Shown piece after piece: positions 42,026 to 55,503 of a stretch of DNA of 64,000 nucleotides. This stretch comes from Escherichia phage 235Ecol030PP. Both the position numbers and the translations under genes were made by a program. Under the pieces are notes generated by a model. That model did not search any database. It was not told the DNA's origin and saw only the letters and a program-made list of their open reading frames with translations. The stretch is from sequence record PP355091.1; one strand, given 5' to 3'. Positions within the stretch are counted from its first letter, which is position 1, and each line of letters opens with the position of its first letter.

Positions 42026-42931
42026 TTAAAGGTCATTCAAAAGGTCATCCAGGTCCGTGTCATCAGCACTAGATGAACTGCCAGAGCTTGAGCTCATAAA
42101 ATCATCTTCAGTTTTTGTATTGAAGTCATCAACATTGAATGCATCCAAATCATCAGCAACTTTATCAGCTTTCTTAGCAGCAGTTGCAGCGGCACCGCCC
42201 ATCACAGCAGTTCCCATAACTTGACCGAATTTAGTGCTCAGTTCTTCAAATGATTTGAATTTATCTTTAGAAGTCATTTCAGAAAGGTCAACCATTTGTT
42301 CGAACAGTTCTTTCTGGAAAGATTCATCATCAATGTTTGGAATCGCAGATTGATTCAGGAATTTAGATTCATCGTAGTTACTAAATCCAGAAACTTGTTT
42401 AACTTTCAGTACAAAGTTAGCACCTTCCCACGGACAAGTTACATCAACTGGAGTTTCACCCATTTCAACATCAACCGCAATCATCGCGTTGATTTTATCC
42501 CAGATTTTCTTACCGAAACGATATTTAAATACTTTACCTTCATTTTCTGGAGCAGCTGGGTCTTTTACTACAAGAATGTTAGCCCAGTAAGAAGTTTTAC
42601 GTTTAACAAGACTGTACTCTTTATTGTCAGTGTTGTACAGATCATTTTTACTGATGTATTGACATACTGGACAAGAATCGTAATCACCGTGGGTAGATGA
42701 ACACGTTTCAATATACCATTTGCCATTTTTCTTGAAACCATGATTTACAAGAATTGCAAATGGTGCTTGTTCATCATTTTTAGACGGAAGAAAACGAATT
42801 ACTGCTTGACCGTTACCCGCATTATCGAGTTTCAGTTTCCACTCGCCTTTATCTTCAGAAGAAAAACCTTTATTGCCATTCAGTTTAGCCATTTGTGCAG
42901 CGAGTTCAGCAGTAGATTTACGTTTAAACAT
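42026..42931 (-). CDS. 32: Single-stranded DNA-binding protein gp32
   Basis: 301 aa, T4 length; acidic Ser/Asp-rich C-terminus. Confidence 0.92.
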
Positions 42932-42998
42932 TTTTATTTCCTTTTTAATTTAATTAACAGTTGGTGCTATGACGATGTATGACCTCATAGCTGGTCAG
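42932..42998 (-). promoter_or_regulatory. Gene 32 autoregulatory translational operator (5' pseudoknot plus AU-rich tract)
   Basis: - strand UGACCAGCUAUGAGGUCAUACAUCGUCAUAGCACC then AAUUAAAUUAAAAAGGAAAUAAAAAUG, matching the T4 gene 32 leader as I remember it. Confidence 0.7.
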
Positions 42999-43013
42999 TG
43001 AGATAATTATAAT

Positions 43014-43021
43014 CTATTTAT
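43014..43021 (-). promoter_or_regulatory. Late promoter TATAAATA (- strand) upstream of gene 32
   Basis: + strand tatttata just upstream of the operator. Confidence 0.45.
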
Positions 43022-43030
43022 AATAAGCAA

Positions 43031-43684
43031 TTAATACTTGCAAGATTTCACAGTTTCAATGAAAACATTTTTAGCTTTCTGTGAATCAATATTTAAAATT
43101 TTTCTATAAGCCTTTAACTTTATAGAATAATTATTCCAGACTAAATTATCAGTCTGTTCATCATGTTTATCAATTATATTTAAAAACGAATCAAGCAAGA
43201 TAAACGTCTCAAACGAAATTATATTCGATTGTAGAAGTTTAAAAATATAACTTGACTGAACTTTTGGATTATATTCAAAAATTTCTTTAAAAGCAGAAAC
43301 TTCAACTTTTTTACTAAAATAGTAAATATTGCGAATATCTTCTTCAAACTTAAATTTAATTTGCTTTAAGCGTCCGATATATTCACGATAAAACACAAGT
43401 GCATCAGCGTCAGAGATGTCACCAATCCAAGCATCTTGGTTAGCAACAAGATTGCTTATAAAGATTAAAGCAAGTTCCTTTAATTTATATTTTTCTGATA
43501 ACTTCTGGAAAAAATACTTATCCCTTCGCTTTTGATAAGCGGCATCAGACACCCGCATGCACCAATTATACTTAATAACATCATACTTTCCATTCATATG
43601 CTGTTTTATCATTAAGTATAATTTATAAACTGATTTACCATCAATGTATCTTTCACCACCAGCAGGCATGCGGAGTTTAATCAT
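43031..43684 (-). CDS. 59: Helicase loader gp59
   Basis: 217 aa, T4 length; directly follows gene 33. Confidence 0.85.
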   Translation of the reverse strand: MIKLRMPAGGERYIDGKSVYKLYLMIKQHMNGKYDVIKYNWCMRVSDAAYQKRRDKYFFQKLSEKYKLKELALIFISNLVANQDAWIGDISDADALVFYREYIGRLKQIKFKFEEDIRNIYYFSKKVEVSAFKEIFEYNPKVQSSYIFKLLQSNIISFETFILLDSFLNIIDKHDEQTDNLVWNNYSIKLKAYRKILNIDSQKAKNVFIETVKSCKY

Positions 43685-44274: not shown

Positions 44275-45192
44275 TCAAAATTCATTAATGCTATTAGTTA
44301 ATTTAGAAAGACCCGCTTTTACAAAATATGAATAAATTTTGCCACGCGGTGGTAATTTATATGAATTATAGTAATTCACAATGTTTGAAGCAATATTATC
44401 AGGAATATAATCAAAATCAATTAGAACTAAATTTTCTTTATAACGATTATATTCAGATTCAGTGAGAAGCACCTTAGCTTGCTCACGATCATTAGCAATA
44501 GCTTCAACGATTGAAGTTTTCATTGAAGGAGTTCGTTCACCTTCAACTCTGGTAAACCAAAAGTCAGATCGTACTTTAACTGAAGCAACGTTATCCTTTT
44601 TGTCGCCTTTAAGGATTTTAGTCATACAGTCAATTTCAGCAGAACCGCTTTTAATTTTAACCCATTTCTTATGCATCGGTGACCATTGCTTAACATTTGG
44701 ATATTTGTGAAGCTGTGTAAAGTCACCATCCGATGAAATGATTAAAATCTTGTGTCCTTCTAAAGAGAACTTTTTAACAAGAACAGCAATGTGGTCATCT
44801 GCTTCATACTTATCAATATCCATAACAATGTATGGCATATAAGCTTTCAATTCATCTATAACTTTATGGCTGGATTCAAAATAACCTTCCCAGTCCCAAG
44901 TAGATTCTTCTCGTGCTTTTCCACGGTTTTTCTTGTAATAGTAAGCAAAATCACGACGCCAATATCCAGATTTCGCGTTATCAATACACAGCACAATTTT
45001 AGTGTATCCAAGCGTTTTTGCTTTTTTGACATTAAACTTAATTGAGTTCAATATCAAATGACGAACCATTGATAAATTAATTTTTTCTTTATCCGGGAAG
45101 TTTACTAGAGCAGTTGAAAGCGCAATTTGACTAAAGTCAATTAAGCAGATTCCTTCTTTGTAATCTTCATCCAACATCATTTCTAAATCCAT
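44275..45192 (-). CDS. rnh: RNase H (5'-3' exonuclease / flap endonuclease)
   Basis: 305 aa from ATG 45192 with GAGG Shine-Dalgarno. Confidence 0.85.
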   Translation of the reverse strand: MDLEMMLDEDYKEGICLIDFSQIALSTALVNFPDKEKINLSMVRHLILNSIKFNVKKAKTLGYTKIVLCIDNAKSGYWRRDFAYYYKKNRGKAREESTWDWEGYFESSHKVIDELKAYMPYIVMDIDKYEADDHIAVLVKKFSLEGHKILIISSDGDFTQLHKYPNVKQWSPMHKKWVKIKSGSAEIDCMTKILKGDKKDNVASVKVRSDFWFTRVEGERTPSMKTSIVEAIANDREQAKVLLTESEYNRYKENLVLIDFDYIPDNIASNIVNYYNSYKLPPRGKIYSYFVKAGLSKLTNSINEF

Positions 45193-45254
45193 ATGAACCT
45201 CGTTCAATTAGTGAGATTTCTATTATATACTATCTAAATCTTAAAGTAAACAGG

Positions 45255-45262
45255 TATAAATA
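45255..45262 (+). promoter_or_regulatory. Late promoter TATAAATA for gene 34
   Basis: Exact TATAAATA 35 nt upstream of the gp34 ATG. Confidence 0.6.
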
Positions 45263-45296
45263 CTTATTATTGAAAACACAATAGGAGCCCGGGAGA

Positions 45297-48200
45297 ATGG
45301 CCGAGATTAAAAGAAAGTTCAGAGCAGAAGATGGTCTGGACGCAGGTGGCGATAAAATAATCAACGTAGCTTTAGCTGATCGTACCGTAGGAACTGACGG
45401 TGTTAACGTTGATTACTTAATTCAAGAAAACACAGTTCAACAATATGATCCAACTCGTGGATATTTAAAAGATTTTGTAATCATTTATAATAATCGTTTT
45501 TGGGCAGCAACGGATGATATTCCAAAACCTGCTGGAAATTTTAATAGAATTCGTTGGAAAGCATTACGTACTGATGCTGTATATACAACCGTATCATCTG
45601 GACCATATCAATTAAAATCCGGAGAAGCAATTTCAGTAGATACATCAGTTGGCAATGACATTGAGTTTACTTTACCACCTTCTCCGCTTGATGGAGAAAC
45701 CGTAATAATTCAAGATATCGGTGGAAAACCTGGCATAAATCAGGTTAAAATAAATTCTTCAAATCAGAGTATTGTCAATTTTAGAGGTGAACAGGTACGT
45801 TCAGTTTTAATGACTCATCCAAAGTCACAGATGGTATTCATTTTTAATAATCGTTTGTGGCAAATGTATGTTGCTGATTATAGCAGAGAAGCTGCGATTG
45901 TTACTCCATCGACTGCATATCAAGCACAATCTAATGATTTTATCGTGCGTAGATTTACTTCCGCTGCGCCGATTAATGTTAAGCTTCCAAGATTTGCTAA
46001 TCATGGCGATATTATTAATTTCGTCGATTTAGATAAATTAAATCCACTTTATCATACAATTGTCACGACATATGATGAAACGACGTCAGTGCAAGAAGTT
46101 GGAACTCATTCCATTGAAGGCCGTACAACGATTGACGGTTTCTTGATGTTTGATGATAATGAGAAATTGTGGAGATTGTTTGACGGGGATAGTAAAGCAC
46201 GTTTACGTATTATAACAACTAATTCTAATATTCGTCCAAATGAAGAAGTCATGGTGTTTGGTGCGAATAATGGAACACCCCAAACAATTGAACTTCAGCT
46301 TCCGACTGATATTTCTGTTGGTGATACTGTCAAAATTTCCATGAATTACATGAGAAAAGGACAAACAGTTAAAATCAAAGCTGCAGGTGAAGATAAAATT
46401 GCTTCTTCAGTTCAATTGCTGCAATTCCCAAAACGTTCAGAATATCCGCCTGAAGCTGAATGGGTAAAAGTTCAAGAATTAGTTTTTAATGGTGAAACTA
46501 ATTATGTTCCAGTTTTGGAGCTTGCTTATATTGAAGATTCTGATGGAAAATATTGGGTTGTACAGCAAAACGTTCCAACTGTAGAAAGAGTAGATTCTTT
46601 AAATGATTCTACTAGAGCAAGATTAGGCGTAATTGCTTTAGCTACACAAGCTCAAGCTAATGTCGATTTAGAAAATTCTCCACAAAAAGAATTAGCAATT
46701 ACTCCAGAAACGTTAGCTAATCGTACTGCTACTGAAACTCGTAGAGGTATTGCAAGAATAGCAACTACTGCTCAAGTGAATCAGAACACCACATTCTCTT
46801 TTGCTGATGATATTATCATTACTCCTAAAAAGCTGAATGAAAGAACTGCTACAGAAACTCGTAGAGGTGTTGCTGAAATTGCTACGCAGCAAGAAACTAA
46901 TGCAGGTACTGATGATACTACAATCATTACTCCTAAAAAGCTTCAAGCTCGTCAAGGTTCTGAATCATTATCTGGTATTGTAACTTTTGTATCTACTGCA
47001 GGTGCTACTCCAGCTTCTAGTCGTGAATTAAATGGTACAAATGTTTATAATAAAAACACTAATAATTTAGTTGTTTCGCCTAAAGCTTTGGATCAGTATA
47101 AAGCTACGCCTACTCAACAGGGTGCAGTAATTTTAGCAGTTGAAAGTGAAGTAATTGCTGGACAAAGTCAGCAAGGATGGGCAAATGCTGTTGTAACGCC
47201 AGAAACGTTACATAAAAAGACATCAACTGATGCAAGAATTGGTTTAATTGAAATTGCTACACAAAGTGAAGTTAATACAGGAACTGACTATACTCGTGCA
47301 GTCACTCCTAAAACTTTAAATGACCGTAGAGCAACTGAAAGTTTAAGTGGTATAGCTGAAATTGCTACACAAGTTGAATTCGACGCAGGCGTCGACGATA
47401 CTCGTATCTCTACACCATTAAAAATTAAAACTAGATTTAATAGTACTGATCGTACTTCTGTTGTTGCTCTATCTGGATTAGTTGAATCAGGAACTCTCTG
47501 GGACCATTATACCCTTAATATTCTTGAAGCAAATGAGACACAGCGTGGTACACTTCGTGTAGCTACACAAGTTGAAGCTGCTGCAGGAAAATTAGATAAT
47601 GTTTTAATAACTCCTAAAAAGCTTTTAGGTACTAAATCTACTGAAGCACAAGAAGGTGTTATTAAAGTTGCAACTCGGTCTGAAACTGTAACTGGAACGT
47701 CAGCAAATACTGCTGTATCTCCAAAAAATTTAAAATGGATTGTGCAGAGTGAACCTACTTGGGCAGCTACTACTGCGATAAGAGGTTTTGTTAAAACCTC
47801 ATCTGGTTCAATTACGTTCGTTGGTAATGATACGGTAGGTTCAACACAGCCATTAGAATCATATGAGAAAAATGGTTATGCAGTATCACCATATGAATTA
47901 AATCGCGTATTAGCAAATTATTTGCCATTAAAAGCAAAAGCTGTAGATAGTAATTTATTAGATGGTCTAGATTCGCTCCAGTTCATTCGTAGGGACATTG
48001 CACAAACAGTTAATGGTTCACTAACCTTAACCCAACAAACGAATCTGAGTGCCCCTCTTGTATCATCTAGTACTGCTGCATTCGGTGGATCAGTTTCAGC
48101 AAATAGTACATTAACTATTTCTAATACTGGAACGGCAACTCGTCTGATTTTTGAGAAAGGACCTCAAACTGGAACAAACCCAGCTCAAACGATGACAGTC

Positions 48201-49166
48201 AGAGTGTGGGGAAATCAATTTAGTGGGGAATCAGACACAACACGTTCTACCGTATTTGAAGTTAGTGATGAAACGTCTAGTCATTTTTATTCTCAGCGTA
48301 ATAAAGCTGGAAATATAACATTTAATATTAACGGTACAGTAACACCGATAAATGTTAATGCTTCAGGAACATTGAATGCAAATGGTGTAGCAACATTTGG
48401 TAATTCAGTCACTGCAACTGGTGAAATTATTTCTCGAAGCGCAAATGCTTTCCGTGCTATTAACGGAAATTATGGATTCTTTATTCGTAACGCTGGTAAT
48501 GACACCTATTTTATGCTCACTGCAGCCGGTGATCAGAGCGGTGGATTTAATGGATTACGCCCTTTAGCTATTAATAATCAGTCCGGTCAAGTAACGATTG
48601 GTGAAAGCTTAATCATTGCAAAAGGTGCTACTATAAGTTCGGGTGGTTTGACTGTTAACTCGAGAATTCGTTCTCAGGGTACTAAAACCTCTGATTTATA
48701 TACCCGTGCGCCAACATCTGATACTGTAGGATTCTGGTCAATTGATATTAACGATTCAGCCACTTATAATCAATTCCCTGGTTATTTTAAAATGGTTGAA
48801 AAAACTAATGAAGTGACTGGACTTCCATATTTAGAACGTGGTGAAGAAGTTAAATCTCCTGGTACATTGACTCAGTTTGGTAACACACTTGATTCTCTTT
48901 ACCAAGATTGGATTACTTATCCAACAACTCCAGAAGCGCGTACAACTCGTTGGACGCGTACATGGCAGAAAACTAAAAATTCTTGGTCAAGTTTTGTTCA
49001 GGTATTTGATGGAGGTAACCCTCCTCAACCTTCGGATATAGGAGCAATCCCATCTGATAATGGAATAATAGGTAATCTTACTATTCGTGATTTCTTACGA
49101 ATTGGTAATGTTCGCATTATTCCTGACCCAGTGAATAAAACTGTTAAATTTGAATGGGTTGAATAA
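45297..49166 (+). CDS. 34: Long tail fibre proximal subunit gp34
   Basis: 1289 aa, T4 length. Confidence 0.9.
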   Translation: MAEIKRKFRAEDGLDAGGDKIINVALADRTVGTDGVNVDYLIQENTVQQYDPTRGYLKDFVIIYNNRFWAATDDIPKPAGNFNRIRWKALRTDAVYTTVSSGPYQLKSGEAISVDTSVGNDIEFTLPPSPLDGETVIIQDIGGKPGINQVKINSSNQSIVNFRGEQVRSVLMTHPKSQMVFIFNNRLWQMYVADYSREAAIVTPSTAYQAQSNDFIVRRFTSAAPINVKLPRFANHGDIINFVDLDKLNPLYHTIVTTYDETTSVQEVGTHSIEGRTTIDGFLMFDDNEKLWRLFDGDSKARLRIITTNSNIRPNEEVMVFGANNGTPQTIELQLPTDISVGDTVKISMNYMRKGQTVKIKAAGEDKIASSVQLLQFPKRSEYPPEAEWVKVQELVFNGETNYVPVLELAYIEDSDGKYWVVQQNVPTVERVDSLNDSTRARLGVIALATQAQANVDLENSPQKELAITPETLANRTATETRRGIARIATTAQVNQNTTFSFADDIIITPKKLNERTATETRRGVAEIATQQETNAGTDDTTIITPKKLQARQGSESLSGIVTFVSTAGATPASSRELNGTNVYNKNTNNLVVSPKALDQYKATPTQQGAVILAVESEVIAGQSQQGWANAVVTPETLHKKTSTDARIGLIEIATQSEVNTGTDYTRAVTPKTLNDRRATESLSGIAEIATQVEFDAGVDDTRISTPLKIKTRFNSTDRTSVVALSGLVESGTLWDHYTLNILEANETQRGTLRVATQVEAAAGKLDNVLITPKKLLGTKSTEAQEGVIKVATRSETVTGTSANTAVSPKNLKWIVQSEPTWAATTAIRGFVKTSSGSITFVGNDTVGSTQPLESYEKNGYAVSPYELNRVLANYLPLKAKAVDSNLLDGLDSLQFIRRDIAQTVNGSLTLTQQTNLSAPLVSSSTAAFGGSVSANSTLTISNTGTATRLIFEKGPQTGTNPAQTMTVRVWGNQFSGESDTTRSTVFEVSDETSSHFYSQRNKAGNITFNINGTVTPINVNASGTLNANGVATFGNSVTATGEIISRSANAFRAINGNYGFFIRNAGNDTYFMLTAAGDQSGGFNGLRPLAINNQSGQVTIGESLIIAKGATISSGGLTVNSRIRSQGTKTSDLYTRAPTSDTVGFWSIDINDSATYNQFPGYFKMVEKTNEVTGLPYLERGEEVKSPGTLTQFGNTLDSLYQDWITYPTTPEARTTRWTRTWQKTKNSWSSFVQVFDGGNPPQPSDIGAIPSDNGIIGNLTIRDFLRIGNVRIIPDPVNKTVKFEWVE
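46690..47750 (+). repeat. Internal ~40 aa coding repeats in gp34
   Basis: Recurring ITPKKL...ATE(T/S)..G..(E)IAT(Q)...G units, about 8 copies. Confidence 0.7.
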
Positions 49167-49174
49167 GAGGTATT

Positions 49175-50290
49175 ATGGAAAAATTTATGGCAGAGTTTGG
49201 ACAAGGATATGTCCAAACGCCATTTTTATCGGAAAGCAATTCAGTAAGATATAAAATAAGCATAGCGGGTTCTTGCCCGCTTTCTACAGCAGGTCCATAT
49301 GTTAAATTTCAGGATAATCCTGTCGGAAGTCAAACATTTAGTGCAGGTCTTCATTTAAGAGTTTTTGATCCTTCTACGGGAGCATTAGTTGATAGTAAGT
49401 CATATGCTTTTTCTACTTCAAACAATACAACATCTGCCGCTTTTGTCAGTTTCATGAATTCTTTGTCAAACAATAGACTTGTTGCTATATTAACTAGCGG
49501 AAAGGTTAATTTTCCTCCTGAAGTGGTATCTTGGTTAAGGGGAGCAGGAACTTCAGTTTTTCCATCAGATTCAGTATTGTCAAGATTTGACGTGTCATAT
49601 GCTGCTTTTTATACTTCTTCTAAAAGAGCTATTGCATTAGAGCATGTTAAACTAAGTAATAGAAAAAGCACAGATGATTATCAAACTATTTTAGATGTTG
49701 TATTTGATAGTTTAGAAGACGTCGGAGCTACGGGATTTCCTAAAAGAACATATGAAAGTGTCGAGCAATTTATGTCTGCGGTTGGAGGAACTAATAATGA
49801 AATTGCGCGATTGCCAACTTCAGCTGCGATAAGTAAATTATCTGATTATAATTTAATTCCTGGAGATGTTCTTTATCTTAAAACACAGCTATACGCCGAT
49901 GCCGATTTACTTGCTCTTGGAACTACAAATATATCTATCCGTTTTTATAATGAATCGAATGGATATATTTCCTCGACACAAGCTGAATTTACCGGGCAAG
50001 CTGGGTCATGGGAATTAAAGGAAGATTATGTAGTTGTTCCTGAAAATGCAGTAGGATTTACGATATATGCACAAAGAACTGTCCAAGCAGGTCAAGGCGG
50101 CATGAGAAATTTAAGCTTTTCTGAAGTATCAAGAAATGGCGGCATTTCAAAACCTGCAGAATTTGGCGTCAACGGTATTCGCGTTAATTATGTCTGCGAA
50201 TCGGCTTCACCTCCAGATATAATGGTACTTCCTACACAAGCCTCTTCTAAAACTGGCAAAGTGTTTGGGCAAGAATTTAGAGAAGTTTAA
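49175..50290 (+). CDS. 35: Long tail fibre hinge protein gp35
   Basis: 371 aa (T4 372 aa). Confidence 0.85.
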   Translation: MEKFMAEFGQGYVQTPFLSESNSVRYKISIAGSCPLSTAGPYVKFQDNPVGSQTFSAGLHLRVFDPSTGALVDSKSYAFSTSNNTTSAAFVSFMNSLSNNRLVAILTSGKVNFPPEVVSWLRGAGTSVFPSDSVLSRFDVSYAAFYTSSKRAIALEHVKLSNRKSTDDYQTILDVVFDSLEDVGATGFPKRTYESVEQFMSAVGGTNNEIARLPTSAAISKLSDYNLIPGDVLYLKTQLYADADLLALGTTNISIRFYNESNGYISSTQAEFTGQAGSWELKEDYVVVPENAVGFTIYAQRTVQAGQGGMRNLSFSEVSRNGGISKPAEFGVNGIRVNYVCESASPPDIMVLPTQASSKTGKVFGQEFREV

Positions 50291-50295
50291 ACTGA

Positions 50296-50321
50296 GGGAG
50301 CCTTCGGGTTCCCTTTTTCTT
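50296..50321 (+). terminator. Intrinsic terminator after gene 35
   Basis: gggagcc-ttcg-ggttccc then tttttcttt. Confidence 0.65.
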
Positions 50322-50322
50322 T

Positions 50323-50330
50323 ATAAATAA
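50323..50330 (+). promoter_or_regulatory. Late promoter TATAAATA for gene 36
   Basis: Exact TATAAATA 23 nt upstream of the gp36 ATG. Confidence 0.6.
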
Positions 50331-50352
50331 TATTAAAATAAAGGGGCATACA

Positions 50353-51003
50353 ATGGCTGATTTAAAAGTAGGTTCAACTGTAGGTGGATCTGTCATTTGG
50401 CATCAAGGAAATTTTCCATTGAATTCAGCCGGTGACGATGTACTCTACAAATCATTTAAAATATATTCAGAATATAATAAACCACAGGCAGCTGATAACG
50501 ATTTCGTTTCTAAAGCTAATGGTGGTACTTACGCCGGTCCAATTACTATTAATTACGGGGTAAATAGTTATCTTCAATTAAGTAATAATGAAACCCCTAT
50601 TCGAATTCGTTCTGGTGGCGGTACCGGTAATACTCTTGTAGTTGGCGGCTCTTCCGGCGGTATTAGTTTTAGACCTGCAGGTAGTGAAATCACTACTGGA
50701 CAAATTACGATTACGCCAGAAGGTTTGACAACATTTACCAAAGCTGTAACGGCTCCATCTGTAACTGTTACATCTACTCCTTCCGCAGCATCTGATGTTA
50801 CTCGTAAAGATTATGTTGATGGAGCAATAAATACTGTTACGGCAAATGCGAATTCTAGAGTTTTGCGTAAAGGTGACACCATGACAGGTAATTTAACAGC
50901 GCCAAACTTTTTCTCGCAGAATCCTGCATCTCAACCTTCACACGTTCCACGATTTGACCAAATCGTAATTAAGGATTCTGTTCAAGATTTCGGCTATTAT
51001 TAA
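50353..51003 (+). CDS. 36: Long tail fibre distal connector gp36
   Basis: 216 aa; position. Confidence 0.85.
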
Positions 51004-51011
51004 GAGGACTT

Positions 51012-53981
51012 ATGGCTACTTTAAAACAAATACAATTTAAAAGAAGCAAAACTGCAGGTCAACGTCCTGCTGCTTCAGTATTAGCCGAAGGTGAATTGGC
51101 TATAAACTTAAAAGATAAAACAATTTTCACAAAAGATGACTCAGGTAGTGTTATAGAATTAGGTTTAAAATATGGAGGAACAATTGATGGTTCTTTAACT
51201 GTTAATGGAAACATAATTGGAAATTTAACAGGTAACGCTGCAACCGCAACGAAATTAAAAACAGCACGAAAGATTAATGGTATATCTTTTGATGGGTCAA
51301 AGGACATTACCCTAACTCCATCTGACATAAATGTCAATAGCACAACATTTATAAAAAATAATGGCGAATTACCTACTGATGCTAATTTAGATACGTATGG
51401 GCCCATTGAAGAATATCTTGGTGTTTGGTCGAAATCTACTTCAACAAATGCGCAACCAGCAAATAAATTCCCAGAAGAAAATGCCGTAGGTGTACTAGAA
51501 GTATTTGTGGCCGGCCAATTTGCTGGCACTCAGCGTTATACTGTTCGGTCTGGTAACGTTTATATCCGTTCTTTATCTGCGAAATGGAATGGCGTAGATG
51601 GTCCATGGGGTCCGTGGCGCAATATTCAAACTGGCACACGTCCACTATCAACTACACTAGACTTGAATACTTTAGGTGATGCTTCTCATTTTGGGTTATG
51701 GCGAAATAGTTCAAGTTCCATTGCATCATTTTCTCGAAATTACCCAGAAGAAGGTGGTCTCGCGCAAGGTCTTTTAGAAGTTTATGAAGGTGGTAACTAT
51801 TCTCGCACGCAACGTTATACTACCCGAATGGGTGTTGTATATGTTCGTTGTCTTGCTAGTGCATGGGATCCAGAAGCTCCGAATTGGGGACCGTGGCAAC
51901 AAGTAGGTATGGTTACTCCAAACACATTCTATGACGGGGATCTTAATAATTTTCGTTCTCCTGGCTTGTATAACATTTTAGGGACTGATGCCGTTATTAA
52001 CCGTCCAGTTGCAGAAGGTGTTCCGGTTGAGATGACCGGATTGCTTGAGGTTAAACAGCGTGCTTCCGGTGGCGCTATTTTCCAACGTTTCACTACCGCA
52101 GGAACGGGTGCAACTACGCGATCTCGCGTGTTTGAACGTGCAATGACAAATAATATCTGGGGAAATTGGTACGAAGTATATACGTCCTATTCTATGCCAA
52201 TTACTTTGGGTATGGGTGGTATTAAAACTCAATTAGCGGAGCTAGATTGGCAAACATTTGATTTTGTTCCTGGTAGTATGTTTAGCGTTCCTTTGAACAA
52301 AATAAAGAACATGCCAGCAAATATGAATTGGGGCACGATTGACGGAAACTTGATTATGTTTTCTGTCGGTCCTAGCGAACACACCAGCACAGGACGTACT
52401 GTTCAGGTTTGGCGTGGTACTGTATCCCAGACAAACTACCGTTATTTTGTCGTTCGTGTGTTCGGTAATTCTGGAAATAGAACTTGCACAGTTCGTCGTG
52501 TTGTTCTTGAAGATGGTCGCCACACATGGACAGCTCAACAAGATTTTAATGGTGCTGTTAACTTTGGTAGTTCAACAACGTTTAAATCAACTACAACATT
52601 TAATACAGAAGTTAAATTCCGCTCATCTAATGCTTTCCGTATGACCGCTGGTAATTATGATGTTATTTGGCGTAATGATGGTGGCAGTTTTTATCTACTT
52701 TCTACTGACGAGAATGATAAAGATGGGCAGTGGAACACCAATCGACCTATCACTTATGGATTGAGTTCTGGTACTCTTAACTTAGGTGGTAAAAGTAGCG
52801 GAAATGCTCTTGCATTAGAACGAGATTCGCTTGCCGCGCATTTTAGTGGTGATGTTAATATTAAAGTTGGTTATTTAACCTTTAATTCTGGGCGATTAAA
52901 TTCTCGCGATTACTTCCGGTTTAACCATTGGGGTGATAGCAATAACGCTCGTGATAACATTATTCAGTTAGAAGATAGCAAAGGCGCTCATTTTTCCACT
53001 GAACGTACTTTAGCGACTGGTGCAATTAAAACTAAATTCTTTGGTGAAGTTGAATCAACTGGTCGATTGACTATTAAACGTCCGGGTGATGCTATTGTAT
53101 TATCGACTACAGCCAGCAACGCTTTGCATATTCGTGGTGACGTAGACGGGACTGGTAACTGGTATATTGGCAAGGGTGGTGCTGATAATGGATTAGCGTT
53201 CTATAGTTATGCTACTAATGCTGGTGTATACATTACAAACGGAGGGGATATCGCGCTAAGTCCAAAAGGCGTCGAAATGGCTCATGTCAATAACGTTCGA
53301 TTCTATGTTCATGGTGAACGTTGGACCGCTAGTCAGCCAGGTGATTGGGGTAGTCAGTGGCAAGTGGAAGCGCCAATATTCGTCGATCATGGTTATGTTT
53401 CACCTGATTGTTATTATCCAATTATTAAAGGAAGAAGTTTAATCACCAATCAAGGGTATAGCACCGCTGTTGACTTTGGTCTTCGTCGTGTCCCTAACAA
53501 TTGGGGACAAGCAATCATTCGCGTTGGATCTGCGGAGAACTCGCCAGCGGCTGGTCATCCTCAAGCTGTATTCGAGTTCCATCATGATGGTACTTTCTAT
53601 TCTCCTGGTAATGGTAACTTTAACGATGTGTATATTCGTTCCGATGGTCGTCTTAAGATTAATAAAAAAGAGCTAGAAAACGGAGCACTTGAAAAAGTAT
53701 GCCGACTGAAAGTTTATACATACGATAAGGTTAAGTCTATTAAAGACCGTAGTGTTATTAAACGTGAAGCTGGTATTATTGCTCAGGATCTTGAAAAAGA
53801 GCTACCAGAAGCTGTATCTAAAGTTGAAGTTGATGGATCTGATGTTCTGACAATTTCTAACTCGGCAGTGAATGCTCTTTTAATTAAGGCTATTCAGGAA
53901 ATGAGTGAAGAAATTAAAGAATTGAAAACTCCTTTCTTTACTAAAATTGCTCGCAAAATTAGTAAATATTTTAAATTCTAA
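51012..53981 (+). CDS. 37: Long tail fibre distal subunit gp37 with C-terminal intramolecular-chaperone (S74-like) domain
   Basis: 989 aa; C-terminal about 112 aa begin at ...[21 protein letters not shown]..., an SD.RLK-type autoproteolytic motif. Confidence 0.85.
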
Positions 53982-53987
53982 CAACAA

Positions 53988-54005
53988 GGGGGAAATGCCC
54001 CCTTT
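53988..54005 (+). other. Stem-loop between genes 37 and 38
   Basis: ggggg-aaat-gccccc then ttt. Confidence 0.4.
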
Positions 54006-54017
54006 GGAGTATAAATT

Positions 54018-54815
54018 ATGGCAGTAGTTGGAGTTCCTGGCTGGATTGGAAGTTCAGCCGTAAATGAAACAGGACAGCGCTGGATGAGTCAAGCGGCTGG
54101 TCAATTAAGATTGGGTGTTCCTTGCTGGATGAGTCAATTTGCAGGTCGTTCACGAGAAATTATTCATACTGTAGGAGCAAACCACAATTTTAATGGTCAG
54201 TGGTTCCGAGATAGATGTTTTGAGGCAGGTAGTACACCTATTGTATTCAATATTGTTGGTGATATTGTTTCTTATTCTAAAGATGTTCCTTTATTCTTCA
54301 TGTACGGGGATACACCAAATGAATATGTTCAGTTAAATATTATTGGCGCTCATATGTGGGGTAGAGGTGGACAAGGTGGATGGACTCATTCCGGTGGAGA
54401 TGGTAATGGACAACAAGGCGGGCATTGTATTCAAAACGACATTGGTGGACGATTAAGAATTAACAATGGTGGAGTAATCTGTGGTGGCGGAGGCGGTGGT
54501 GGCGGCATTGCTTACCGTGTTCACTCAGGGGCAAACTGGCAAGATATTGGTGGTGGCGGCGGAAGACCATTTGGCCCAGGTGGTGGCGGTGGTTACTCAG
54601 GTGGCGCAGCTTCATACGTCGCCCCAGGAGGTGGTTACCAATACGGAAATGCTCACTCTGGCCAGGGCGGCGATGCCGGAGGAAATGGACAAAATGCCTG
54701 GTCTGATGGTGGTAAAGTTCTAAAGGTTGGTGCAGGAGGAGCAGCAGGTTATGCTGTCATAGGATCTGCTCCAACTTGGCAAAATGTTGGAGTAATATAT
54801 GGTCCAAGAGTATAA
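54018..54815 (+). CDS. 38: Receptor-recognising adhesin gp38 (T2 type, glycine-rich)
   Basis: 265 aa; conserved N-terminus, then poly-Gly tracts (GGGGGGGG, GGGGG, GGGGG) separated by variable segments. Confidence 0.8.
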
Positions 54816-54846
54816 TTTTGAATAAATACCCCTAAAAGGAGGGTCT

Positions 54847-55503
54847 ATGGCAGCACCTAGAATATCATTTTCGCCCTCTGATATTCTATTTGGTGTTCTA
54901 GATCGCTTGTTCAAAGATAACGCTACCGGGAAAGTTCTTGCTTCCCGGGTAGCTGTCGTAATTCTTTTGTTTATGATGGCGATTGTTTGGTATAGGGGAG
55001 ATAGTTTCTTTGAGTACTATAAGCAATCAAAGTATGAAACATACAGTGAAATTATTGAAAAGGAAAGAAATGCACGCTTTGAATCTGTCGCCCTGGAACA
55101 ACTCCAGATAGTTCACATATCATCTGAGGCAGACTTTAGTGCGGTGTATTCTTTCCGCCCTAAAAACTTAAACTATTTTGTTGATATTATAGCATATGAA
55201 GGAAAATTACCTTCAACAATAAGTGAAAAATCACTTGGAGGATATCCTGTTGATAAAACTATGGATGAATATACAGTTCATTTAAATGGACGTCATTATT
55301 ATTCCGACTCAAAATTTGCTTTTTTACCAACTAAAAAGCCTACTCCCGAAATAAACTACATGTACAGTTGTCCATATTTTAATTTGGATAATATCTATGC
55401 TGGAACGATAACCATGTACTGGTATAGAAATGATCATATAAGTAATGACCGCCTTGAATCAATATGTGCTCAGGCGGCCAGAATATTAGGAAGGGCTAAA
55501 TAA
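54847..55503 (+). CDS. t: Holin T
   Basis: 218 aa; single N-terminal TM (VAVVILLFMMAIVWY) and large periplasmic domain. Confidence 0.85.
   Translation: MAAPRISFSPSDILFGVLDRLFKDNATGKVLASRVAVVILLFMMAIVWYRGDSFFEYYKQSKYETYSEIIEKERNARFESVALEQLQIVHISSEADFSAVYSFRPKNLNYFVDIIAYEGKLPSTISEKSLGGYPVDKTMDEYTVHLNGRHYYSDSKFAFLPTKKPTPEINYMYSCPYFNLDNIYAGTITMYWYRNDHISNDRLESICAQAARILGRAK

Follow-up and report, generated by a model that had tools for sequence, protein, structure and literature searches.

The long tail fibre of T2/T6-type phages ends in a gp37 that is cleaved and a gp38 that caps the fibre (PMC3157838). This is the predominant configuration in the family and not an unusual hybrid (Trojet 2011, PMC3157838). 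Proteolytic processing of T2 gp37, with autocatalytic release demonstrated by experiment, is credited to Drexler 1986 (as cited in PMC3157838). For Salmonella phage S16, autocatalytic release of the intramolecular chaperone (IMC) is likewise cited as an experimental result in PMC7917993, where the cleavage site is given as DLNVS^SDRRIKK; the title of a reference listed in that paper names OmpC as the S16 receptor. A further site, DVYIR^SDGRLKI, has been published for the Yersinia phages fPS-2/65/90 (PMC7917993). The phages AV119 and FL08 carry OmpA-dependent ‘type 1’ Gp38 adhesins, and neither of them still plated on a strain in which ompA had been deleted (Lutz et al. 2025, PMC12032242).

The fibre-tip arrangement is common and already well described. 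Genetic work on it dates back to the 1980s and structural work to 2018, and publication of the exact cleavage context followed in 2021. The S16 gp37-gp38 complex is reportedly that of Dunne et al. 2018 (PDB 6F45). In T4, gp37 has its own receptor-binding tip with Collar and Phage_fiber Pfam domains. It lacks the S74 domain which Pfam places in the gp37 of both AV119 and T2.

Layout of the locus and its relatives

The window is the whole 64,000-nucleotide stretch of Escherichia phage 235Ecol030PP analysed here (record PP355091.1). Its distal fibre locus is, with high confidence, a standard module of Tequatrovirus carrying a gp38 adhesin of the T2/T6/Ox2 type (Table 1). Gene 38 lies directly downstream of the S74-bearing gene 37, separated from its stop by a 36-nt gap, and is followed by t, the product of which has 98.6% amino acid identity with T4 t. 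The profile phrog_1699, ‘long tail fiber protein distal subunit’, matches gp37 over aa 1-984 (1000-position profile, E 2.5e-221), and phrog_2056 matches gp38 (E 1.4e-110). T4 lengths had been claimed for gp34, gp35 and gp36. Against the T4 reference lengths of 1289, 372 and 221 aa the match is exact for gp34, and it is inexact for gp35 (371 aa) and gp36 (216 aa). Minus-strand ORFs in gene 37 (e.g. 51059-51529 and 52242-52541) are annotated in no relative and were taken as chance.

Table 1. Features of the distal long-tail-fibre locus, in window coordinates
Feature	Coordinates	Strand	Extent or detail	Basis
g34	45297-49166		1289 aa	
g35	49175-50290		371 aa	
Terminator-like hairpin just 3′ of gene 35	50294..50315	+	9-pair stem, 5 GC pairs, T-rich tail	
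T4 late-promoter consensus TATAAATA, upstream of gene 36	50322..50329	+		Exact match
Gene 36, distal hinge connector	50353..51003	+	216 aa	Pfam Phage_T4_gp36
Gene 37, distal long-tail-fibre subunit precursor	51012..53981	+	989 aa	phrog_1699; annotated likewise in relatives
Conserved gp37 N-terminus, gp36 attachment	51012..51166	+	~aa 1-52	Common to T4, T2, S16; blastn, protein alignment
Knob-like repeat R1	51369..51647	+	aa 120-212	Shuffle z-score, hhalign, AF2 model match
Knob-like repeat R2	51648..51911	+	aa 213-300	As for R1
Possible third degenerate knob R3	51912..52196	+	aa 301-395	Shared motif, marginal scores
Rarest gene 37 patch	52513..52944	+		Best full-length nt match YUEEL01, 81.9% (phage collection)
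Gp34_trimer-like shaft domain	52566..52757	+	aa 519-582	PF21446, E 7.5e-16
Predicted autocleavage site	53637..53642	+	Codons R876^S877	Alignment with S16 gp37
IMC (Peptidase_S74)	53640..53978	+	aa 877-989, 113 aa	PF13884; PDB 6f45_A
Gene 38, Gp38 tail-fibre adhesin	54018..54815	+	265 aa	PF21721 + PF05268; PDB; phrog_2056
gp38 N-terminal attachment domain, T2/fPS-type subtype	54018..54143	+	aa 1-42	Pfam, alignments
gp38 glycine-rich receptor-binding region	54345..54812	+	aa 110-265	Glycine-rich motifs alternating with hypervariable segments
Holin t (context)	54847..55503	+		Pfam Phage_holin_T, E 1.9e-117

The fPS-90 record carries an annotated terminator at the position equivalent to the hairpin and a predicted late promoter that coincides in position with TATAAATA at 50322. 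By homology, this copy is the probable start of a g36-g37-g38(-t) late transcript. A second exact copy of the consensus is present at 45255, upstream of g34.

The module is widespread. At least 80% of it is covered by 98 phage records, more than 90 sequenced Tequatroviruses carry all of it colinearly, and many of them share about 95% identity with the 24-kb neighbourhood as a whole. The fPS/CHD2BS1/PYPS2T group has the same gene order, a similar gp37 length (988-995 aa), the same gp38 N-terminal subtype, and an IMC and cleavage context DVYIR^SDGRLKI identical to those of 235Ecol030PP. Nucleotide identity over the whole module is 87.4% to CHD2BS1 and 86.7% to PYPS2T, and for fPS-90 an 85.7% match begins late in gene 36 and runs as far as the 5′ half of gene 38. 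CHD2BS1 has a gp38 with 97% amino acid identity and a gene 36 that is 84-99% identical, but is only 62-78% identical at three gene 37 patches derived from other lineages (51523-52152, 52513-52944 and 53215-53500).

The first-pass annotation had described T4-like gp34-36 joined to a T2-type gp37, with a breakpoint in gene 36 or the 5′ end of gene 37. The position of the break was borne out. By blastn, similarity to T4 DNA covers 45000-50534 and 50774-51166, which takes it to roughly codon 52 of gene 37, and is then absent until 54822, 7 nt after the gene 38 stop. T2 similarity at the 5′ end of gene 37 stops at 51161, and the additional patch in the middle of gene 36, at about 50534-50774, diverges from T2 as well as from T4. 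This abrupt loss and return of T4 similarity, together with a gp37/gp38 domain architecture which is that of T2, favours a recent and unusual hybrid in which a T4-like phage (genes 34-36) recombined with T2 (genes 37-38). Such an origin is nevertheless very improbable. T2 has the same backbone and gene layout as this locus, and the upstream proteins are equally similar to T4 and T2 (amino acid identity 92%/91% for gp34, 96%/96% for gp35 and 67%/64% for gp36). Past the first ~150 nt, DNA similarity between this gene 37 and its T2 counterpart is undetectable. The T2 gp37 differs in its length of 1341 aa and its unrelated shaft, with 23% global identity, and T2 gp38 is only 48% identical and has other hypervariable segments. 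The whole locus is colinear in many phages at 86-88% nucleotide identity. Comparison with the nearest relative shows gene 37 to be a patchwork on a fine scale, the patches being nearest to KMB43/RB3 (98%), YUEEL01 (82%) and L14 (92%). A specific T2 donor was ruled out by blastn and global alignments. The phage collection held no pair made up of a T2-lineage phage with near-identical genes 37-38 and a T4-lineage donor of genes 34-36. The T4-to-T2 joint is a framing artefact, as gp34 and gp35 are equally near both phages and the gp37 shaft is unrelated to that of T2.

The gp37 shaft

Three internal repeats of ~75 aa had been proposed in gp37. The repeats were scored by Smith-Waterman against shuffled sequences and by hhalign, as self-BLASTP returned nothing usable. 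Two are clear: R1 against R2 gives a z-score of 27.7, with 0 of 500 shuffles reaching the score, and an hhalign E of 2e-26. The third is marginal and not statistically secure (z of 2.4 and 1.7, with hhalign E-values of 9e-4 and 6e-3), and the unit is about 90 aa rather than 75. R3 does have the motif GLLEV..QR[FY]TT..W..W..V in common with R1 and R2, and is beta-rich with lower pLDDT in the AF2 model. A fourth repeat at aa 396-500 was ruled out by a z-score of about 0.

The AF2 model of aa 105-400 (pLDDT 74.9) matches the knobs of the R1/R2 pyocin fibres (6cl5/6cl6) with an E of 2e-5 and a probability of 1.0, with about 200 columns aligned at a TM of only 0.30. NCBI gives homologues the name ‘pyocin knob domain-containing protein’, and the region has 49-70% amino acid identity with E. 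coli prophage tail fibres. The protein search behind these matches returned only prophage fibres at no more than 70% identity, and missed near-identical T-even gp37 proteins which are in the phage DNA collection; its list is no census. No pyocin-knob profile in Pfam or NCBIfam matched gp37. An NCBIfam scan of gp35-gp38 gave nothing at E <= 0.1, with both gp37 and gp38 lacking a matching model. The shaft contains two clear repeats that are putative pyocin-knob-type domains, perhaps a third, and the Gp34_trimer-like domain, which is also matched by T4 gp34 (PDB 4uxe, E 4.8e-6). It is decidedly improbable that the shaft, instead of being a passive spacer, is a new combination of the rare patch at 52513-52944 and the tandem knobs, in which the knobs act as secondary carbohydrate- or LPS-binding sites modulating host range independently of gp38.

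The gp37 chaperone domain and the gp38 adhesin

The 989-aa gp37 ends, as the first-pass annotation had stated, in an S74/IMC domain. Peptidase_S74 (PF13884) matches aa 877-935 with 44.5 bits against a Pfam cutoff of 22 (E 2e-11, profile positions 1-57 of 58), and the domain occupies the extreme C-terminus of the protein. The solved S16 gp37 fragment 6f45_A matches the IMC by sequence homology over 104 residues (E 6.7e-6). Collar and Phage_fiber were not found in this gp37 by Pfam, and its likeness to T4 is limited to the first ~52 aa and the flanking genes 34, 35 and t.

The SD.RLK autoproteolysis signature noted earlier is present as IRS877DGRLK882. The motif S877-D-G-R-L-K882 opens the domain with Ser and Lys intact, and these two residues form a putative dyad. 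The pattern S-D-x-R-x-K is kept in the alignment with T2 (SDIRLK), S16 (SDRRIK), fPS-90 and CHD2BS1. The homologous S16 site (S^SD) puts the predicted cut at R876^S877, and the IMC would therefore be 113 aa long rather than the ~112 aa first estimated for this C-terminal domain. The S16 IMC likewise has 113 residues. S16 belongs to a different genus, Gelderlandvirus, and has a 749-aa gp37 with unrelated shaft and tip sequence.

The reading of gp38 as a T2/Ox2-type adhesin, and not the T4 assembly chaperone, was upheld in full. Pfam places Gp38_N (PF21721, 72.4 bits) at aa 1-42 and GP38 (PF05268, 223.5 bits, profile positions 1-218 of 218) at aa 47-265, both, like Peptidase_S74, far above the curated threshold. 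PDB matches are 9v85 (E 1.5e-70) and S16 gp38 (6f45_D, E 7e-53). Global alignment with the unrelated T4 gp38 (183 aa) gives 12% identity. Glycine makes up 26% of gp38 and 37% of aa 110-265, with runs of G8, G5 and G5. The glycine runs (117-121, 156-163, 178-182, 188-192, 204-206, 217-222 and 240-241) are kept in an alignment of six adhesins, and the segments between them vary. S16 gp38 is built similarly: its N-terminus is an attachment domain, and a polyglycine sandwich bears distal loops. In the N-terminal domain the alignment shows no variation at W9, W22 and W37. The role of the N-terminal tryptophans of gp38 in plugging into the gp37 tip has been described (PMC7917993).

The mechanism suggested by these likenesses would begin with late transcription of genes 36, 37, 38 and t, probably from TATAAATA at 50322, and production of gp37 as a 989-aa precursor. 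The C-terminal S74 chaperone would nucleate trimerisation of the fibre and then remove itself by Ser877/Lys882-dependent autocleavage at R876^S877, as homology predicts. Cleavage would expose a flat trimeric tip ending in ...DVYIR. One gp38 would dock on this tip of the virion fibre through its tryptophan-bearing N-terminal domain, and its hypervariable loops, held by the polyglycine motifs, may then bind the outer-membrane protein OmpA.

It is hardly conceivable that the S74-like domain is instead a degenerate, non-cleaving remnant and gp38 solely an assembly chaperone, as in T4. The motif retains both its Ser and its Lys, and conservation of the domain among relatives is 96-100%, which implies selection. 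The architecture of gp38 is that of a complete adhesin and matches adhesins of solved structure.

Predicted receptor

An OmpA receptor, bound by a broad ‘type 1’ adhesin, is predicted for 235Ecol030PP by homology. The receptor-binding region of gp38 (aa 110-265) is 100% identical to that of AV119, 99.4% to FL08 and 81% to Ox2 gp38. AV119 differs in its S16-like gp38 N-terminal attachment domain and in its 1104-aa gp37, the IMC of which has only 38% identity. Two different fibres therefore carry the same specificity domain, and the junction falls near gene 38 codon 47. AV119 was rejected as the closest overall relative; its gp37 matches only aa 1-67, aa 671-865 (52%) and the IMC. The gp37 is unlike its AV119 and FL08 counterparts, so the phage could differ from these two in host range or in the use of LPS as co-receptor.

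The module may also be as described and still recognise another primary receptor (e.g. Tsx, OmpF or the LPS core), through small changes or the different gp37. The type 1 OmpA adhesins are phylogenetically near Tsx binders (Lutz et al., PMC12032242), OmpF or LPS serves as receptor for the related fPS phages (PMC7917993), and PYPS2T, the recorded host of which is Yersinia pseudotuberculosis, has the same gp38 C-domain (100%). This is unlikely, as the near-complete identity is to the binding regions of two phages which both fail to plate on the ompA deletion strain. The fPS-90 gp38, by comparison, reaches only 73% identity, and none of its hypervariable segments is the same. OmpA remains the predicted receptor, and this prediction helps in the choice or engineering of therapy phages.

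For annotation, the value lies in describing gene 37 as a precursor with a predicted 113-aa self-cleaving chaperone and gene 38 as an adhesin. In several database records gene 38 is labelled “tail protein and peptidase” or “assembly catalyst”.

Organisation of the long-tail-fibre locus

The first-pass annotation of genes 37 and 38, the distal tip of the long tail fibre, is confirmed as an observation and its functional interpretation is right; the span it assigned, 51012-54815, runs exactly from the start of gene 37 to the stop of gene 38. The emphasis on a "mosaic hybrid" is not special, and all features, down to the cleavage context, have already been described in close relatives and are already known. 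The window derives from the genome of a Tequatrovirus (T4-like), and the 24 kb around the tip are ~95% identical to many sequenced Tequatroviruses of E. coli, Shigella and Yersinia. Genes 36-37-38(-t) probably form one late transcription unit, since a terminator-like hairpin and a late-promoter consensus lie before gene 36 and are annotated likewise in the record of phage fPS-90.

Coordinates of genes, regulatory signals and gene 37 patches in the window
Feature	Position	Description
g34	45297-49166	1289 aa
g35	49175-50290	371 aa
g36	50353-51003	216 aa
g37	51012-53981	989 aa
g38	54018-54815	265 aa
t (holin)	54847-55503	218 aa
T4 late-promoter consensus TATAAATA	45255	before g34
T4 late-promoter consensus TATAAATA	50322	before g36
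Terminator-like hairpin	50294-50315	precedes the consensus at 50322
Gene 37 patch	51523-52152	98% identical to KMB43/RB3
Gene 37 patch	52513-52944	no full-length match above 82% nt in 50,697 phage records
Gene 37 patch	53215-53500	up to 92% (L14)

Upstream, a 301-aa ORF (42026-42931, T4 gp32 length) and a 217-aa ORF (43031-43684, T4 gp59 length), identified solely by length and position, are separated by only ~100 nt (42931-43031). The homing endonuclease segG found between the corresponding T4 genes is absent here, as in T2. Pfam reports an ILEI (interleukin-like EMT inducer / FAM3) match at gp35 aa 58-112 (33.7 bits, cutoff 27), shared by T4 gp35; a 2026 T4 preprint mentions gp35 and ILEI together, and the domain has probably been noted already.

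The gp37 chaperone domain and the gp38 adhesin

With phrog_1699 ("long tail fiber protein distal subunit"), of which it is a full-length member, gp37 scores E 2.5e-221. Pfam places a Gp34_trimer-like domain at aa 519-582 and Peptidase_S74 at aa 877-935 (44.5 bits, cutoff 22), the latter starting with S877-D-G-R-L-K882. The similarity to S74 domains proposed for the C-terminus is borne out by this match and by alignment to the intramolecular chaperone (IMC) of S16 gp37 in PDB 6F45 (E 6.7e-6); gp37 of T2, fPS-90 and CHD2BS1 can also be aligned. As a control, Peptidase_S74 was also found in T2 and AV119 gp37, T4 gp37 carrying Collar and Phage_fiber instead. It has been reported that S16 gp37 is cut at S^SD, aligned to DVYIR^SDGRLKI of Yersinia phages fPS-2/65/90 (PMC7917993), a context which is exactly that of the window gp37. 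From the S16 cut and the identical fPS context, mature gp37 is predicted to comprise aa 1-876 and the IMC aa 877-989; the claimed domain stands, its length being 113 aa, one more than the ~112 aa given. The same source predicts that the docking surface for gp38 becomes exposed once the IMC is released. That gp37 of the T2/T6 type is processed and that gp38 caps it is textbook knowledge (Drexler 1986, via PMC3157838).

In gp38, Pfam identifies Gp38_N at aa 1-42 (72 bits) and GP38 at aa 47-265 (223 bits); the protein matches PDB entries 9v85 (E 1.5e-70) and S16 gp38 6F45_D (E 7e-53). W9, W22 and W37 of its attachment domain are invariant in the alignment. As proposed, it is unrelated to the T4 assembly chaperone (12% identity to the 183-aa T4 gp38, global alignment), and the anticipated glycine tracts with intervening variable segments are present: aa 110-265 are 37% glycine, with conserved glycine-rich motifs flanking the variable segments. 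Many GenBank records (hits H1-H30) label this adhesin 'tail protein and peptidase', 'distal long tail fiber assembly catalyst' or 'hypothetical protein'; the peptidase label fits the gp37 C-terminus, not gp38.

By tblastn, gp38 aa 110-265 are 100% identical to AV119, 99.4% to FL08 and 81% to Ox2. Deletion of ompA in the host abolishes plating of AV119 and FL08, whose gp38 proteins are classed as "type 1" OmpA adhesins with a broader host range (Lutz et al. 2025, PMC12032242). This identity predicts OmpA as the protein receptor.

Mosaicism of the fibre tip

In blastn, T4 similarity covers 45000-50534 and 50774-51166 and is absent until 54822, 7 nt past the gene 38 stop. The breakpoint, expected in gene 36 or the 5' end of gene 37, was found at ~codon 52 of gene 37, with a further divergent patch in mid gene 36 (50534-50774). 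T2 gives the same pattern, with similarity ending at 51161 and no DNA similarity to the gene 37 body beyond. The claim of a T4-like fibre joined to a T2-type tip holds for breakpoint and domain architecture, not for a special T4-T2 parentage: T2 has the same backbone as the window, and its gp37 and gp38 are only 23% and 48% identical. Because gp34 (92%/91%) and gp35 (96%/96%) resemble T4 and T2 to the same degree, and because the break against T2 is alike, the phrase denotes an architecture class, not parentage. Identities for gp36 are 67%/64%. The gp38-adhesin form is described as predominant in the family (PMC3157838).

The gene 37-gene 38 module is covered to at least 80% by 98 phage records. 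Gene 37 is a patchwork when set against CHD2BS1, the closest relative over the full length (87% nt); the patch overlapping the Gp34_trimer-like domain reaches at least 99% in short partial matches only. AV119 has an identical gp38 specificity domain but a different (S16-like) attachment domain, and its gp37 (1104 aa) and IMC also differ. This identical domain on another N-terminus puts a recombination junction at about codon 47 in gene 38; in the AV119 comparison, the N-terminal stretch (54018-54160) was set against L006 4180-4320. The junction fits the lock-and-key pairing of gp38 N-terminal with gp37 C-terminal subtypes described in PMC3157838.

GC content is 0.43-0.49 across genes 37-38 (51500-55000) versus 0.30-0.38 in the flanks, and gene 38 has a strongly positive GC skew of up to +0.34. 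Both probably stem from glycine GGN codons and possibly from a foreign origin of the module.

Internal repeats of gp37

Three repeats of ~75 aa had been proposed. R1 (aa 120-212) and R2 (aa 213-300) are unambiguously a duplication (z 27.7, reached by 0/500 shuffles; hhalign E 2e-26, 41% identity). Only a motif links R3 (aa 301-395) to these two; its membership is marginal (z 2.4/1.7, E 9e-4/6e-3). The unit size is ~90 aa. A fourth unit was rejected by shuffle scoring.

When aa 105-400 were modelled with AF2 (pLDDT 74.9), the model matched the knob region of the R1/R2 pyocin fibres (6cl5/6cl6, E 2e-5, ~200 columns) and also staphylococcal phage receptor-binding proteins. The reading of the repeats as knob-type fibre domains of ~90 aa is supported, though not proven, as the TM is only 0.30. 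In a large protein database, the homologues of this region (51324-52211) are tail fibres of E. coli prophages (49-70% identity), many of them named "pyocin knob domain-containing protein"; the protein search did not return the ~98% nt-identical T-even gp37s of the phage DNA collection. The prophage relatives carry PF12571/PF03406 N-termini, and their similarity to the knob region indicates that fibres of lytic T-even phages and of temperate phages have exchanged domains.
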